From positions 111,538,001-111,602,000 of the forward strand of contig NC_059428.1 of the NCBI RefSeq assembly GCF_021028975.2: a stretch of 64,000 nucleotides of DNA. The letters are read 5' to 3'. The translations under genes and the position numbers were made by a program. Positions within the stretch are counted from its first letter, which is position 1; every line of letters begins with the position of its first letter. A model generated the notes under the pieces. The model was not told where the DNA came from. It saw only the letters and a list, made by a program, of their open reading frames with translations, and made no database searches. Of the stretch, positions 46,450 to 53,689 are shown piece by piece. Origin of the DNA: Sphaerodactylus townsendi. Its lineage: Eukaryota.

Positions 46450-46695
46450 TGTCTTGCCGAAGGCTTACACGGCCGGATTCAACTGGTTGTGGTGGGTTTT
46501 CCGGGCTGTGTGGCCGTGGTCTGGTGGATCTTGTTCCTAACGTTTCGCCTGCATCTGTGGCTGACATCTTCAGAGGTGTATCACAGAGGGAAGTCTGTTA
46601 CACACAAGATGCCAGCCACAGATGCAGGCGAAACGTTAGGAACAAGATCCACCAGACCATGGCCACACAGCCCGGAAAACCCACCACAACCAGTT
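46450..46695. mobile_element. Palindromic non-autonomous Penelope-like element
   Basis: 90-bp inverted arms 46481-46570 and 46606-46695 (2 mismatches); direct repeat TTAAATTAAACT at 46438-46449 and 46694-46705; contains a hammerhead core. Confidence 0.8.
46536..46576 (-). ncRNA. Minimal type I hammerhead ribozyme (Penelope-type)
   Basis: CCU-CUGAAGA-UGUCAGCCACAGAUGCAGGC-GAAACGUU-AGG: conserved core, stem I CCU/AGG, palindromic ACGU stem III. Confidence 0.7.
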
Positions 46696-48363
46696 AAATT
46701 AAACTGTCAAAGGATATAGTACCCTAAAGAATTTCATTTATTTTTTGTGTAGGGGGTGTACCTTCCCTAACATCTTAATGACGGCAAAGCCAAAAAAGGG
46801 GGTTTAGGTCATTTGTTCATAAATGTTGTCAATTATTCACAGTCTATATAGATGGGAATTGTTGGCATCAAAGATTGCTGTGATCTCCCAGAGTATCTGT
46901 ACCAGCTTTCTGGACTTGTTTTAATTTTTAAATAAACATTAATTTAATGTTTGTTAAATTAATTTAATGTTTATTTAATAAACATTAATAAAGAATGTTG
47001 CTCAGTAGAGTGGCAGGATAAAAATAAAGTGTGCCATCAAGCGACAGTCGACTGATGACAACCCCCTGAAGTTCCACCTTATGGGGTTTTCAAGGCAAGA
47101 GAAGAGCAGTGGTGATGAGCCATCGCCTCCCTCAGAATGGCAGCCCAGTTCTTCTTGGTGGTTTTCCATCCAACTATTGACCCGGCTTAGCTTCCAAGGT
47201 CTTACGAGATCAGACTCGTCCTGTTTCTATGATATTCCAGTGGAAAGATAACTTGTATTAAAACTGGTGCTGTTAGCACCGGTTGAAACAATAACTTAGT
47301 CATGAAACATATTGAGAAAGTCGTTATCATCTCACAGCCTAAATTATCTCAAGATTATTGCGGAGATAAACAAAAGATAAGGTTGTATCATAATTTGCTT
47401 TGAAGCCTTGGGGGTAAAGTGGGTGGGTGGGTAGAAATAACAACTCAGTCATTACATGTTTGATATCGTTCTTAAAGTCTGGCGTAGGTACGTGGGAGTG
47501 GACTTTTCACTCAACTACTTTGAGTCAGGATTGCTCCAGGCACACTTCTGGCGGATGAACTAAAATGGTAATGTTCTTAAATTATTTTAGGAAATGAATG
47601 TTTAACATGGACAGATTTTCAGGAGCAGACAATACAAGAAAACAAACCCAAACAGGCTGTGTGAGTGTGAACTGGCATATAATCTTCTAATGGGGTGGGA
47701 GAGGGATAAGTGAGGACATACTGTTCCATACCTGGAGCTGGCAACCCTAAGGCCTAAGAAGCTGTCTGCCCAGATAGGATTTTTTAAAAAGTACATTGGC
47801 CTGTTAGTTAAAGTTGCTGTAGATGGTGAGACTCCCTCGCTCAATAAGTACACCACAACGACAGGCTGGAAAGGAATGGGCCGCAGCCCGTTTATTAAAC
47901 AACAAACATATAAACAAGAACTATTTACATCAGAGCTGGGCGGCAAACGGGTCGCACATCACATCCCAATGAATGGGAAACTGGCGGGAAGGGAAGCCCA
48001 GAGATCATACTCCTAAATGCTTCCACACTTCCCGCCCCTGCTGAGGAGACGGGCACCGGCTGAGCCCCAAGGCCGCCCCCAGCCCGTCTTCCTCCCGTGC
48101 TTGCTGGGGTGTCGGGCACCGGCTAAGCCCATGGCCGCCTAACGGCCCAACCCAACCCCACTCCCTGGGGTGTCGGGCAGCGGCCCGGCCTGCCGGCCTG
48201 CCAGCCTGCCCGCCCCACCCCCCCGGCCCTCATAGGGCGCAAGCCTGGGAGCCCCAGCCGGAAGGCTCGTTCTCTCCCCAGATGTGCGACACCGTTGCAA
48301 ACCCGCCACGAGCTGCCCACCCTTGCAGCTCACCGCCCAAGCTCCTCAAGCCTGAGCCTGTCT

Positions 48364-48946
48364 CTATCTTAACCACCGACAAAGGGTAAACTGAACTGAC
48401 TGAAGCCACAAGTCCATGCCCCATTGGGACAGGCGGACGCCATCCGGCTGAAAAAGGTCCATGACGTCCCGGGTGATTTCGGAGTGTTCCGCCACCGCTC
48501 CCCCGAGGGAAAGCACCACCTTGGCGGCCGCCTTATTGACTTTTCTGCAGGCCCTGTCCACTGCAGAGGGATCCAACGCTCCGCTCCAATGGGCCCACTG
48601 CACCATCTCGGACCAAACCAAGGTCATGTTAGGCCGGTGCCTGGCAAAGCTCCTGAGCGTGGCGGCCACTGCAAAACGCAGGTCAAGGCCCGACCTGGCA
48701 GGGAGATCTTCCTCCCCAAGGTGGATGACCAGGAGGTCCGGTGTAGCCAGCTGAAAAATGTATTCAATGACCTTGGGCTCTAGCTCATGCCAAAGCATGT
48801 GCCCCTGCCCCATCCAGGAAATTCTTACGTGCGCGAGTCCGAGATGCCGGCCCCATTCGAATTGCAGTAGTCCCCGACTCTGTTGACAAGGCTGTGCCCC
48901 ACGACCCACACCTGCCGATAGACAGTCTGCGGCGTCCCTGGAGGCA
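48364..48946 (-). pseudogene. SGNH/GDSL hydrolase-like ORF of the element (one frameshift ~48860; no ATG)
   Basis: VWVVGHSLV (block I, shifted frame), PDLLVIHLGEED (block III), DGVRLS (block V). Confidence 0.8.
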
Positions 48947-48959
48947 CTGAGGAGGGAAA

Positions 48960-49870
48960 TCAACAAGTCAGGTGTGGGCGAATGTACGCCCGAAAGGCCC
49001 CCGACCGCCACCTGCCCAAATTGCGGATATCCTCCGGGGCCCTGCCTTCTGCTGCCGCGGCCGTGGCGGCCCCAATTCTGAACGAGTGCAGGCCGAATTC
49101 CGCAGCCGGTAGCCCGGCTTGAGCCAAGCATGCCCTGAACACCGCCAGCATTTGGAACCTGGTGAGGGGGGACCCATCCTCGTGCACCAAGAGCATGCCA
49201 CCCACCAGAGGCCTGTGCCGTAGCCACTCAATAAGGGGGGGGAGGGGCAGGTGGCGTCGCCCGGTAGGGCCGGCATGGTGACCCAAGCCCCACGGCCCTC
49301 TTGGTCGGTCTTCGAATGGGCCAGCCAAGCGTAGACCATGTCTCCCGACAGGACGAGGTGGTCCCTTTGCAGCACGGTGCTGGAAGGTCGATCCCTGGTA
49401 GGGGCAACCAGTTCCCCAGGCCTGAAAGCCCCGTGGTGTGCCAGGTGGAAGGCGGCGGCGAAAAGCAAGCGCTCATAGCGCGAAGCGCACACCTGCCTTA
49501 GCACCCCAGTGACCGCCCTCAACACTTCCTTGGTGACTGGGCGCCTGAGGTCCCTCTGTCTGGTGCCCACCCGCCGCCACCCAGCCACTAGGCGGCGGAC
49601 TACAAACGCCTTGGTGATGTCAGGAAAACCGGAAACCTTGCAGTAGAAAGCGATGCCCGCCAGGTGCACCCCCATGGTGCGCGGGTGCATCCCCTGCCCA
49701 TGGAGCCGGACCAAATACTCGAGGAGGAGGCCAGTGTCCACCCCACCGCAGACCCGGCGCCCGGAGGACGCAGCTGAAGCTCAGGAAATCGCGCACGGCT
49801 CCGGCTGTATTGCCTGCAGTGGCCGGTGCCAACGAAGTTCAAAACACCTGTGATGACGTCTCGTTGCCAA
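48960..49870 (-). pseudogene. Ngaro-like tyrosine recombinase, frameshifted
   Basis: Catalytic motifs GAFRPGE, SKTDQ, HSFRIGAAT, GRWRS, AYIR, split over at least three frames (breaks near ~49810, ~49740, ~49240). Confidence 0.9.
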
Positions 49871-49889
49871 GGCTCCAGAGGGACGCCCG

Positions 49890-51508
49890 GCACTGTCGCG
49901 GAACGGCTCCGCCCCGGGGGCCAGGCGCCGGAAACGATCCACCTGCTGGCGAGATAAGGCGTCAGCAATCTCATTCTGCAAACCTGGAACAAAAGCAGCT
50001 TTGAAAGAGATGTTATGAGTGAGGCAGGTGAGAACCAAATTGCGAACCAGGCGCATGACCCGTGCCGATTTGCTCGACTGTCTGTTTACCACGCGTACCA
50101 CTGCCTGGTTGTCGCACCAGAAAAGCACCCGTTTGTTAAGCCAGAGGTTGTGCCAAATGTGCACCGCCACCAGGATGGGAAACAGCTCCAGAAAGGTGAG
50201 ATCCCTGGTGATGCCCTGCGCGTGCCACTCTGGGGGCCAAAGGCCCTGCGCCCACTGACCCCGGAAGAACACACCGAAACCAAAAGCCCCAGAGGCATCA
50301 GAGTGCACCTGCAACTCCAGGCCAGGTTCCAAAGCTGATTGCCACAAAGAGATGCTGTTGAAGTTTCGGATGAAGGACAACCAGACCTGTAGGTCTTCTT
50401 TCATGGGAGACCCTGATGTGATGGTCAGGGGACTTGCAGCCCGACAAGGACCTCGCCAGCCGGGAGCAGAAAGCCCTACCCGGGGCCACCACCCTGCAAG
50501 CGAAATTGAGGTGGCCGAGTAAGGACTGGACCAGGCGCACCTGCATTTTCGGAGGAGGAGAACGGACTGGAGCAGGGCTGAAAGGGCTGTAAGCTTGTCA
50601 GCCGGGAGTGACGACGTGCCTAGGACCGTGTCCAGGTGAATGCCCAGGTAGCTGAGGGCAGTGGCGGGCCCCTCCACCTTGTTGGGAGCCAAGGGGACCC
50701 CCAGCTCGGCGGCCAGGACCTGGAAAGCCTGAAGGGCCAGCTCACACTCCCGGGTGCCCTGCCTGCCGATAAACAAGAAATCATCAAGGTAATGGATCAC
50801 CAAACCGGAGGGCACCCGCTGCCTGAAAGCCCATTCAAGGAAAGTGCTGAAAGTCTCAAAGGCGGCACAGGCAAAGGAGCAGCCCATGGGCATGGCCTTG
50901 TCCACATACCAATTGCCTTGGAAGTGGATGCCCAGCAGCTCGAAGTCCACGGGGGAAATGGGCAGGAGCCGGAAGGCGGACTGAATGTCACACTTTGCTA
51001 GGGATGCCCCCGGACCCGCCTGCCTGATGCAGGGGATGGCTTCGTCCAGGGTGGCGTAACGGACCGAACAAACCTCTGGGTCAATGAAATGATTCACGGA
51101 ATCGCCCCGGGGGTGGGAGAGGTGTTGAATTAAGCGAAACTCCCCCGGGGCTTTCTTAGGCACGACGCCAATTGGGGAGACCCTGAGGTTGGGGAGAGGA
51201 GGGTGACTGAAAGGGCCAGCAATGCGGCCGGCCTGGATTTCCTTGTTGAGCTTATCAGCCACCACTCCAGGGAGATCGCGGACAGATTTTAGATTGCTGG
51301 CTTGGTAAGCCCTCCTTGGGCCTTGGTATGGGATGCGGAAGCCAGAAGAGAAACCATCCCCCAGCAGGCGCGCAGCCCCCCTGTCTGGATAACGCTGCAG
51401 CCACTCCAAAAGCACCCCCACTTGAACGGGTGTAGGAGCCAGAGACTGCAGCTGAGCGAGCATCTCAGTGTTTTGCGGGGGCGGGGGCACTGCCCTGGCC
51501 ACCGGCAT
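49890..51508 (-). pseudogene. Ngaro-like reverse transcriptase / RNase H, with two compensating frameshifts (~50547 and ~50405)
   Basis: SPIGVVPKK, FRLIQHLS, KCDIQSAFR, MPMG, HYLDDFLF, HSDASG, LELFP, WCDNQAVV, NEIADALSR. The segment VQSLLGHLNFACRVV lies in another frame. Confidence 0.9.
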
Positions 51509-52916
51509 CTTTGTGGGAGGGCCCGGCGCCGGGCGACCGGGCCTGCCGAAAGGGAGGGCGTCCCGCCGGCTTGGGACAGCTGATCCTGCTGTGGCTGCCG
51601 GAACAAAAGGAGCAAGAGTGCTCAAATCTACATTTTGGCCGCTGGCAAGCACCTTTGTTGAATTCCCAACACAACCCCTTAGCCCCCACCCGCCCCGGGT
51701 AGGCTCTGCCGGGTTTTGTAAGAACAGGAGGATCCGCCGCCCCTCCCATGGCGGGCTGGACCACGACCATCCAGGTTTGGTCGTGGATGAGGTCCCAACG
51801 GAAAAGGCACTTGTGCGAGGCGTTCTTGCGGATGGCCTCGTCGTAAGCGATGGCCGCAGTTTCCCCAGCCAGCGCCCAAGCCCGCAGCACATGAGCCATG
51901 TGAGCTGCCAGGTGCCAGGCCCGCAGGGGATACGCTGCCCCGATGAGGGCCAGGAATTCGGTGAAGCCCTGCAGCCAGTTGTTAAAATTCCGCTCGGCTG
52001 CTGCTGGGTCCTTCCGTTTTTTGTCAGCCTTCCCGCCCGACAAACCCAACTCCCCCTCCCGCCGCGGGAACTTAAAGATGTCCACGTAATACCCATCCAG
52101 CGCCCGCTCCCGGAGCTTCCTGGGGAGGTGGGACCCGGGCGGGTTGCCGCGGTCGTCTTGAGCCGGGCCAGGGGATGGCGCTTCGCCGCCCCGAAACGCC
52201 TCGCGCTTTGCAAGCCACGGTGGGAGAGCAGGCACTCTCTCCCCCCCGCACCCAAAATTCCCCAGTGGCCTGCGCGGCATCATCCTCAGTAGACTCGCCC
52301 GCCAACGAAGAGCTGGGGGATCGCCGGGGCACACGGGAACGCCCTGACAACCGCTCCCTCCTCCTGCCCTCGCGCCCGAGGGCCGACGGACGCATCCACC
52401 GATGTGGACGCTACGCTTAACCGGTGGCGAAAGGTGCAGCTCCTCCGTTGCTCCGCTCGCGGCCCCCGCCGGCGCCGCACCGGCCGCCGCCGGCGCGGTA
52501 GGCTCAGGGCCCCCGACCCCCGAGGTGGGGCCCGACTCGCCAGCCGCTCCGCCGAGGACTTGTGAAAGATGCAACAGGGTGTCCGCCAGGTTGCGGACCA
52601 AGGCAGGATCGGTGCCAATATGGCCAACATGTTCGGGCCGGGAAGATGCCGGGCCGGCACCCCCCGGGACCGCGGGGAGGGCCCCTCCTAAGGGGGACTG
52701 TCCCGCCATGCCGACCGGCTGTCCCCTGCCGATGGGAGACAAGCCCGAGCCCGCGGCCGCCCTCGCCGCCGCTCCGATTCGCCCAACAACCGGGCCGTCG
52801 TCCGACGTCCCCGGGCCAGTCTGGGCCCGGACCCTGTTCAGCAGAGCACACGCTCTGCCCGATGGCACCGCCGCCTCAGCAGCAGGCTCCCTGCTCTTGG
52901 CCCTTTTCGGCCCCAT
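51465..52916 (-). CDS. Ngaro-like ORF1 (gag-like) with C-terminal CCCH/CCHC zinc fingers
   Basis: GCCGCCATGG start context; CWEFNKGACQRPKCRFEHSCSFCSGSHSRISC; FNNWLQGF...YDEAIRK motif typical of DIRS/Ngaro gag. Confidence 0.85.
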   Translation of the reverse strand: MGPKRAKSREPAAEAAVPSGRACALLNRVRAQTGPGTSDDGPVVGRIGAAARAAAGSGLSPIGRGQPVGMAGQSPLGGALPAVPGGAGPASSRPEHVGHIGTDPALVRNLADTLLHLSQVLGGAAGESGPTSGVGGPEPTAPAAAGAAPAGAASGATEELHLSPPVKRSVHIGGCVRRPSGARAGGGSGCQGVPVCPGDPPALRWRASLLRMMPRRPLGNFGCGGERVPALPPWLAKREAFRGGEAPSPGPAQDDRGNPPGSHLPRKLRERALDGYYVDIFKFPRREGELGLSGGKADKKRKDPAAAERNFNNWLQGFTEFLALIGAAYPLRAWHLAAHMAHVLRAWALAGETAAIAYDEAIRKNASHKCLFRWDLIHDQTWMVVVQPAMGGAADPPVLTKPGRAYPGRVGAKGLCWEFNKGACQRPKCRFEHSCSFCSGSHSRISCPKPAGRPPFRQARSPGAGPSHKDAGGQGSAPAPAKH

Positions 52917-53689
52917 GGCGGCTGCGAGACCGGCCCAGAAGAGGTGAAAGGAAAGAAAAGGTTGAAACGAGAGAAGCGAGGAGGGCCAGAGGAAGAAGGA
53001 AATTCAGCTAAGAAAGGAAAGGAAAGAAAAGGCCAGTCTCCTTCCAGGCCTTACGCGAGACTCCAAAAACACGACCACGCCTTGCTGGTTCTCGCCGCCG
53101 GGAAGGGCGCGGACCGGGGAAGGCGTCTAGATATACCCAGGCTCCTCCCGCCTTTTTCGGTGGGAGCCAATCATTGCACCCGGTTCTGCAGCTAGCCGCC
53201 AGGCCATGCATGCCCCTTATCTTGCTGCGTTGCTCACCACGGCAGCAATGGCTGCCCCTGGTTATTCAGGTGCATCTTATTTTGCAGAAGCTAAACTAGG
53301 TTTCTCCAGCCTTGGTGAGCTTTTGGGTACTTGTTGGAATTTGGAAAAGGGCAATGGATATTGCCCAAAATGGATGCCATAGAGGGCTGGTTTATATTCG
53401 ATTCAACATAAAGATAATAGATTGTATATTCCTCCACCACAGAACAAAGCATGCCGGACCTTCTTTGCTGAAGAATGCCCCGCCTGGGTCCTAGTGCCTT
53501 CCTCGCCCTTTTGCCATCAATGCTGTTGTATCAAAGTACCATGTTCAATAATGCACAAAATAATGGTTTTGACAAAGGGAGCCCATAAAAATGAATAATT
53601 CTCATGTTTGTTCAGGACTATATTCTAATGCAGAAGCATGCAACTTTCTCAATCGCTGCACCTCAACTGACCACTTGTGTGTTCCAGCA

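Follow-up and report, generated by a model that had tools for sequence, protein, structure and literature searches.

The Ngaro-like retrotransposons DIRS-53_XT and DIRS-54_XT of Xenopus carry a fourth open reading frame (ORF) with an SGNH domain (PMC9210276). In the accessible parts of the literature, the function of this hydrolase is described as unproven (PMC9210276; PMC6681497) and the SGNH frame of the two Xenopus elements is treated as a separate, overlapping ORF (PMC9210276). The main text of PMC9210276 contains neither 'splic' nor 'intron'. No spliced Gag-SGNH product of a Ngaro element was found in the literature, which included those parts of PMC7192593, PMC9341512, PMC6681497, PMC3212892, PMC8547959 and PMC4495291 that were accessible; the founding descriptions, the Repbase entries and the supplements of PMC9210276 may mention splicing. 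For the recombinase ORF of DIRS-order elements, frameshifting has been assumed (Poulter and Butler 2015, in the extract quoted in PMC13003380).

SGNH esterases are also present in the ORF1 proteins of CR1/L2/RTEX elements. According to the accessible portion of PMC3905857, ZfL2-1 ORF1p combines a self-association part, an arginine-rich motif and an SGNH esterase in one chain, and active-site mutations do not abolish the binding of the esterase to acidic phospholipids and liposomes. Here we report that the SGNH frame of a Ngaro element in the genome of Sphaerodactylus townsendi lies behind a conserved splice acceptor, and that it very probably forms the second exon of a fusion with the N-terminal part of Gag.

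Sequences and comparisons

The DNA analysed is a stretch of 64,000 nt from the RefSeq assembly GCF_021028975.2 (NC_059428.1:111,538,001-111,602,000), called the window in the following. All coordinates refer to the window; the element and all of its features lie on the minus strand. Its family is young and large, with 616 candidate loci, 40 of which were scored; the 30 young copies used are 90-98% identical. Sister subfamilies provided 20 copies with 72-86% identity in SGNH. A further 60 loci of the same genome were hand-picked from the 119 and 125 matches of two foreign SGNH queries; together with three copies of the window clade they make up 63 loci from 16 lineages, with a between-lineage identity of 27-71% (median 48%).

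Results

The element is an ordinary SGNH-bearing Ngaro tyrosine-recombinase retrotransposon (order DIRS). It extends from 53282 to about 47814 and comprises an A repeat, gag, RT/RNase H, recombinase, SGNH and one B repeat. Gag, RT/RNase H and tyrosine recombinase follow each other in this order with overlaps (ORF layout and Pfam), split direct repeats of the form A1...B1-A2-B2 are present in the siblings L110, L116, L121 and L124 and in 10 of 29 other young loci, and the SGNH ORF lies downstream of the recombinase, a trait of amphibian-type Ngaro elements. The same repeats and genes have been described for DIRS-53_XT and DIRS-54_XT in the accessible part of PMC9210276. With Pfam, the window copy yielded RVT_1 (4e-10), with RVT_3 and Phage_integrase under the cut-off, and no methyltransferase domain in the subset of 7 frames of this broken copy that was searched.

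The 5' end of the element is the A1 split direct repeat of 208 bp (53075-53282), with CCAAT-like, GC-box-like and TATA-like motifs. It is followed by the 5' leader (52917-53109) and the gag ORF (51465-52916), which ends in a CCCH-type zinc finger (a weak Pfam match) and has local frameshifts near the donor described below when compared with unbroken copies. The RT/RNase H region (49790-51545) is in the +1 frame relative to gag, has no conserved ATG and is broken by frameshifts in the window copy. The recombinase ORF (48960-49942) is likewise frameshifted in the window copy, and its first Met stands about 90 residues into the open frame. The SGNH region (48364-48946) has a length of 196 codons where it is unbroken; in the window copy, the absence of 7 bases found in other copies shifts the frame near 48866-48833. 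The B repeat (47814-48316) contains AATAAA at 47896-47891, and the window copy stops here, without the A2-B2 present in other copies. Many siblings likewise stop after one B repeat, as at 47814, which would fit B-repeat recombination. Two observations concern other sequences: a second recombinase-bearing family of the same genome (e.g. C11:6838076-6838621) has open frames of 971 codons and is probably DIRS-like, and an inverted repeat at 46477-46699 of the window, whose 94-nt arms are 97% complementary and separated by 35 nt, resembles a small non-autonomous DNA transposon.

The SGNH frame of unbroken copies comprises 200 codons counted from the recombinase TGA, and its first Met lies 51-56 residues in, past the block-I Ser; an earlier, point-mutant ATG occurs in 2 of the 30 young copies. 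A conserved SGNH ATG is absent from the 63 loci: the open frame contains no Met within the 30 codons upstream of the Ser in 39, a Met just 3-4 codons upstream of it in 13, and Mets at scattered positions in the other 11. Language-model features assigned the protein to SGNH clusters (Atlas score 0.98), and its predicted fold, a model of low confidence (pLDDT 53.5), matches SGNH hydrolases in Foldseek, with the ZfL2-1 esterase 4c1b among the top matches (E 4.7e-4). Pfam and PDB sequences, word-seeded protein searches, and scans of metagenome and viral contigs gave no match to the SGNH ORF; a degenerate block-I pattern gave three matches, one of which was inspected and proved not to be SGNH.

The block-I Ser (GHS) is present in all aligned loci. 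In the window clade, block III reads ED instead of ND in 21 of 22 loci, and block V has Arg instead of the catalytic His in 15 of 22, the window copy included (around 48435). The other loci are mostly intact (ND in 44/60, His in 54/60). With the catalytic His so often replaced by Arg, hydrolysis is probably dispensable in the window clade, and the loss there of residues that most other loci keep fits a role without need for hydrolysis. This recently amplified clade (L106-L125 and the window copy) may have lost hydrolysis. A frame of 2114 codons at L106, considered as a possible fusion, was rejected, as it is a proline-type repeat run behind the SGNH domain.

The original prediction had placed a splice acceptor in front of SGNH block I, and its parts were found as described. 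A branch-like CTGAC at 48971-48967 lies within the last recombinase codons, the recombinase TGA (48962-48960) is followed by a pyrimidine tract, and two AGs stand 9 nt apart at 48948-48947 and 48939-48938, so that the acceptor with its first AG occupies 48947-48971 and the second AG site 48937-48939. The resulting exon starts, 48946 and 48937, are both in phase 1, the phase of the block-I peptide RQVWVVGHSLV, and no ATG precedes this peptide.

Conservation across copies, which had been proposed as a check, was uninformative within the young family: each AG is invariant in the 30 young copies (0/60 variant cells each), but the region as a whole varies by merely about 1% (49/4500), and we gave this no weight. 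Divergent copies carry the evidence. In the sister subfamilies the first AG is kept in 22/22 loci and the second in 19/22; the spacer differs in length and sequence while its pyrimidine richness stays, and protein similarity starts at the first AG. When the best AG is taken from the 90 nt upstream of the block-I Ser in each of the 63 loci, 55 are in phase 1, 7 in phase 0 and 1 in phase 2, compared with phase 1 in 94 of 314 control windows; as the lineages share ancestry, the loci are not independent, and a p value from these counts is not a true probability. The pyrimidine fraction upstream of the AG is 0.80, against 0.53 in controls. A YTRAY branch-like motif is found in 38 of 61 divergent loci (47/366 in controls). 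It counts against the site that acceptor 48946 ranks 18th among the conserved acceptor-like sites of the clade when scored with our splice-site matrices, which are crude. On the strength of these comparisons, the SGNH acceptor is real and conserved. Tandem phase-1 acceptors, as at 48948-48938, recur elsewhere (L130-L189), with 9-nt spacing in 27 of the 63 loci and 12-nt spacing in 6.

The best conserved donor in a position ranking over 19 aligned elements lies inside gag (52293-52301, first intron base 52298). It reads GT in 17 of 18 aligned copies and GC in the window copy (CGG|GCGAGT), which is why the original prediction, made from the window copy, missed it. The donor is in phase 1 in unbroken gag frames and directly follows an arginine-rich motif and a serine run. 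Gag could be located in 49 of the 63 loci, and the best donor was in phase 1 in 44 of these; 41 of the 44 are GT(G/A)AGT at the homologous site, and three more loci have the hexamer in frameshifted copies. It is present in 13 of the 16 lineages, the other three having no gag in the stretch compared. The residues encoded by the hexamer vary (GES, GKS, SES, SEY, SEF, SEL, SKL, SEW), and AGT and GGT account for 6.7% and 16.5%, respectively, of the Ser and Gly codons nearby. Bases that stay fixed while the residues change, by way of codons rare in the vicinity, point to selection on the bases themselves; the set showing residue variation was chosen by the motif itself, and the donor ranking over 49 loci was not. 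The internally deleted copy L166 keeps both splice signals, with the gag donor merely 985 nt from the SGNH Ser.

If joined, the gag donor and the first SGNH acceptor would connect a first coding exon (52299-52916), extending from the Gag N-terminus to the arginine-rich motif and serine run, to the SGNH region as exon 2. In copy L062 the first exon comprises 198 codons plus one base, and the phase 1 to phase 1 junction gives an in-frame protein of 394 aa (198 + 196) across an intron of 3356 nt. We infer that a spliced fusion of Gag-N and SGNH of about 394 aa is very likely to be the product of the SGNH ORF. The original prediction of a spliced RNA is thereby upheld for a gag-SGNH fusion, for which the comparative support is strong, and not for a form joined to the leader. 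The window copy cannot itself make the fusion, given its GC donor and frameshifted SGNH.

Protein records, all of which are predicted gene models unless stated otherwise, point in the same direction. A profile search with SGNH found 1498 proteins, and among the 150 matches listed many have a basic, low-complexity N-terminus before SGNH; the 30 matched records that were looked up are mostly RefSeq models of squamates and amphibians and include one mussel protein. The same arrangement is found in a single ORF in P0044, which was called from a Logan contig of 1677 nt. With the N-terminal 225 residues of the Podarcis model P0019, 27 proteins were found, of which 15 run on as Gag (34-41% identical to the window gag) and one is short. 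The remaining 11 turn to SGNH, and in all of them the switch comes immediately behind the Gly at the end of the serine run; this Gly is the position of the gag donor found here. Annotation pipelines make other joins too, since five of the 150 matches listed have recombinase sequence before SGNH and two have RT sequence. Searches of the same genome for spliced retrocopies, with exact patterns, gave no match for a leader-to-second-AG junction and one chance match for a gag-to-first-AG junction. Contigs from four sequencing runs of undeclared type, compared with the window (15 of 22 joints listed), and contigs from one run compared with copy L062 (5 joints) had no joint at the predicted splice sites, which speaks neither for nor against splicing. 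A sequencing contig that begins at the acceptor CAG was rejected as splice evidence because subfamily variation accounts for its start.

The gag donor may also serve the recombinase. Candidate phase-1 acceptors into the recombinase frame (49942-49947, exon starts 49945 and 49942) overlap RNase H codons. Of 52 loci, 37 have a phase-1 AG at -107 nt relative to the conserved recombinase start and 23 have a further one at -47, which in one lineage comes with a textbook branch site and tract. In record P0010, a gag-like N-terminus runs into recombinase sequence, with the join exactly at -107. These AGs may feed the recombinase from the same donor, though coding constraint is another possible reason for their conservation. 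One could argue from the -107 AG and from P0010 that the conserved gag donor serves this or some other acceptor, and that the SGNH acceptor, although real, is mainly used by donors elsewhere, in the recombinase or in host genes; host-like genes with related SGNH domains would agree with this. We consider it very improbable: all 11 Podarcis proteins of the SGNH class join at the gag Gly, and use of the donor for the recombinase is compatible with its use for SGNH. The long gecko records P0001, P0002, P0003 and P0007 have host-like N-termini and one to six related SGNH domains. P0007 is named zinc finger protein 318-like, a similar gene exists in two gecko genera, and exon capture or domestication is possible.

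A donor had been proposed in the leader, with GC|GTAAGG at 53054 and an acceptor CGCAG| at 52922, 5 nt ahead of the gag ATG at 52916. The positions are correct, and 15 of 19 clade copies have the GTAAGG. If joined to the SGNH acceptor, this donor would create an in-frame C+TG start at the junction and a stand-alone esterase, comparable to env. There is little chance that this is the route taken. The GT is AT in 4 of the 19 copies, among them all three of one subfamily, a YAG precedes the gag ATG in just 11 of 19, and the junction reads CUG in just 6 of 19 copies and UUG in 9. The donor scores 4.5 with the crude matrices, compared with 9.8 for the gag donor, and the five other lineages compared have no equivalent leader donor and no common set of donor, tract and AG. 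In the folds of 8 of the 19 copies, the tract forms a loop whose stem sequesters the region of the supposed acceptor. The leader intron is therefore rejected as the main route. Overall, the leader folds no better than shuffled sequences (z 0.35), and an alignment fold kept the first stem, which has the GTAAG inside, as its single stem and with little covariation. The second stem, around the pyrimidine tract, keeps its pairing in the 8 folded copies while both arms change between subfamilies (leader 53109-52917); the stems could be a packaging or translation signal.

Synthesis of SGNH from unspliced RNA, by readthrough, frameshifting or reinitiation at the recombinase stop, would agree with the young family, in which SGNH continues in the frame of the recombinase beyond its TGA, with the published assumption of frameshifting for the recombinase ORF (quoted in the accessible extract of PMC13003380) and with the five models among the 150 matches listed that join recombinase to SGNH. 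However, the SGNH frame relative to the recombinase is 0, +1 and +2 in 36, 18 and 22 of 76 loci (by a loose motif criterion, with 6 loci unplaced), and even within the window clade it is 0 in 5, +1 in 2 and +2 in 14. That the offset takes all three values argues against readthrough or frameshifting, and the spacer resembles a 3' splice site in every lineage. This route is very improbable. That the signals arise by chance or as by-products of coding and SGNH is an untranslated passenger is extremely improbable, since the many acceptor-like sites that crude matrices give in the element and the altered catalytic residues of the window clade are outweighed by the phase bias, the tract and branch enrichment, the donor bases kept against codon usage, and the His (54/60) and ND (44/60) retained in the other loci.

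For the RT, no common acceptor was found; the best candidates are in phase 2, 0 and 1 in 21, 14 and 10 of 45 loci and lie at scattered places. The gag frame has CCC TTT CGG at 51546-51554, and 36 of 45 loci, from 11 of 13 lineages, have CCC-TTT-CGN in this frame at 106-127 nt upstream of the conserved RT start; the background, counting any frame, is 0.09 per 70 nt. Of the 15 Podarcis Gags, 14 contain P-F-R. This conserved CCC-UUU-CGN may be a +1 ribosomal frameshift site into RT. It resembles the influenza A PA-X cassette UCC_UUU_CGU in that UUU-CGN belongs to the upstream frame and the following ORF lies in +1 (PMC5009743), and differs in that the site is known here from its conservation alone. 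The accessible part of the same review states that a UCC-to-CCC change lowers the efficiency of +1 frameshifting, and does not mention DIRS or Ngaro; no UUU-CGN site was found for Ngaro in the literature. The recombinase acceptor and the RT frameshift site are both less secure than the SGNH splice.

Discussion

In the expression model that we favour, the spliceosome would cut out about 3.35 kb, that is, the remainder of gag, RT/RNase H and recombinase, and the last G of exon 1 would combine with TG of exon 2 to give a Val codon at the junction. Unspliced RNA would yield full Gag and would also be the template for reverse transcription. Retroviruses and LTR retrotransposons are known to use spliced subgenomic mRNAs, as for env, the short gag of copia and Bet of foamy viruses. 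As in these elements, an unspliced genomic RNA would exist beside a spliced RNA that skips pol, and the acceptor is located at the end of the enzyme genes. The analogy with env that had been drawn for this locus holds for the acceptor and fails for the conserved leader donor and the own AUG: env has both, whereas here the donor lies within gag, gag provides the N-terminus, the product is an SGNH protein and the element belongs to the order DIRS.

Compared with DIRS-53_XT and DIRS-54_XT, in which the available part of PMC9210276 treats SGNH as an ORF of its own, the frame would here be the second exon of a Gag fusion. The predicted layout of the fusion (short helix, arginine-rich motif, SGNH) parallels that of ZfL2-1 ORF1p. 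Elements of the ZfL2-1 type are non-LTR elements that encode the layout in one continuous ORF; in the present element, which has a recombinase, it would arise by splicing, as an alternative to full Gag. If the fusion works like ZfL2-1 ORF1p, RNA binding or co-assembly with Gag might fall to its basic Gag part, and attachment of the particle to membranes or lipids to its SGNH domain. Provided that splicing holds, we favour a role as a particle subunit connecting Gag and RNA with membranes, while giving this role somewhat less than an even chance.

A wider scheme is more doubtful still, and we offer it tentatively. Vertebrate Ngaro elements might run a whole retrovirus-like programme from one gag start, with a +1 frameshift to Gag-RT/RNase H and one gag donor used for two phase-1 acceptors (Gag-N-recombinase and Gag-N-SGNH). 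The SGNH form would then bind membranes as a subunit of the particle, having converged on the ORF1 layout of L2/CR1, and act in the role of env, and its portable acceptor would explain capture by host genes.

These results bear on the question of how DIRS-order elements express overlapping downstream ORFs that have no ATG. Because the exact donor and acceptor are named, one junction search can test the splicing. The protein to study would be redefined as a basic, Gag-derived arm with an SGNH domain, a layout like that of ZfL2-1 ORF1p reached in another way. The fusion would explain many 'uncharacterized' protein records of lizards and amphibians, and suggests how host genes may have gained the domain.
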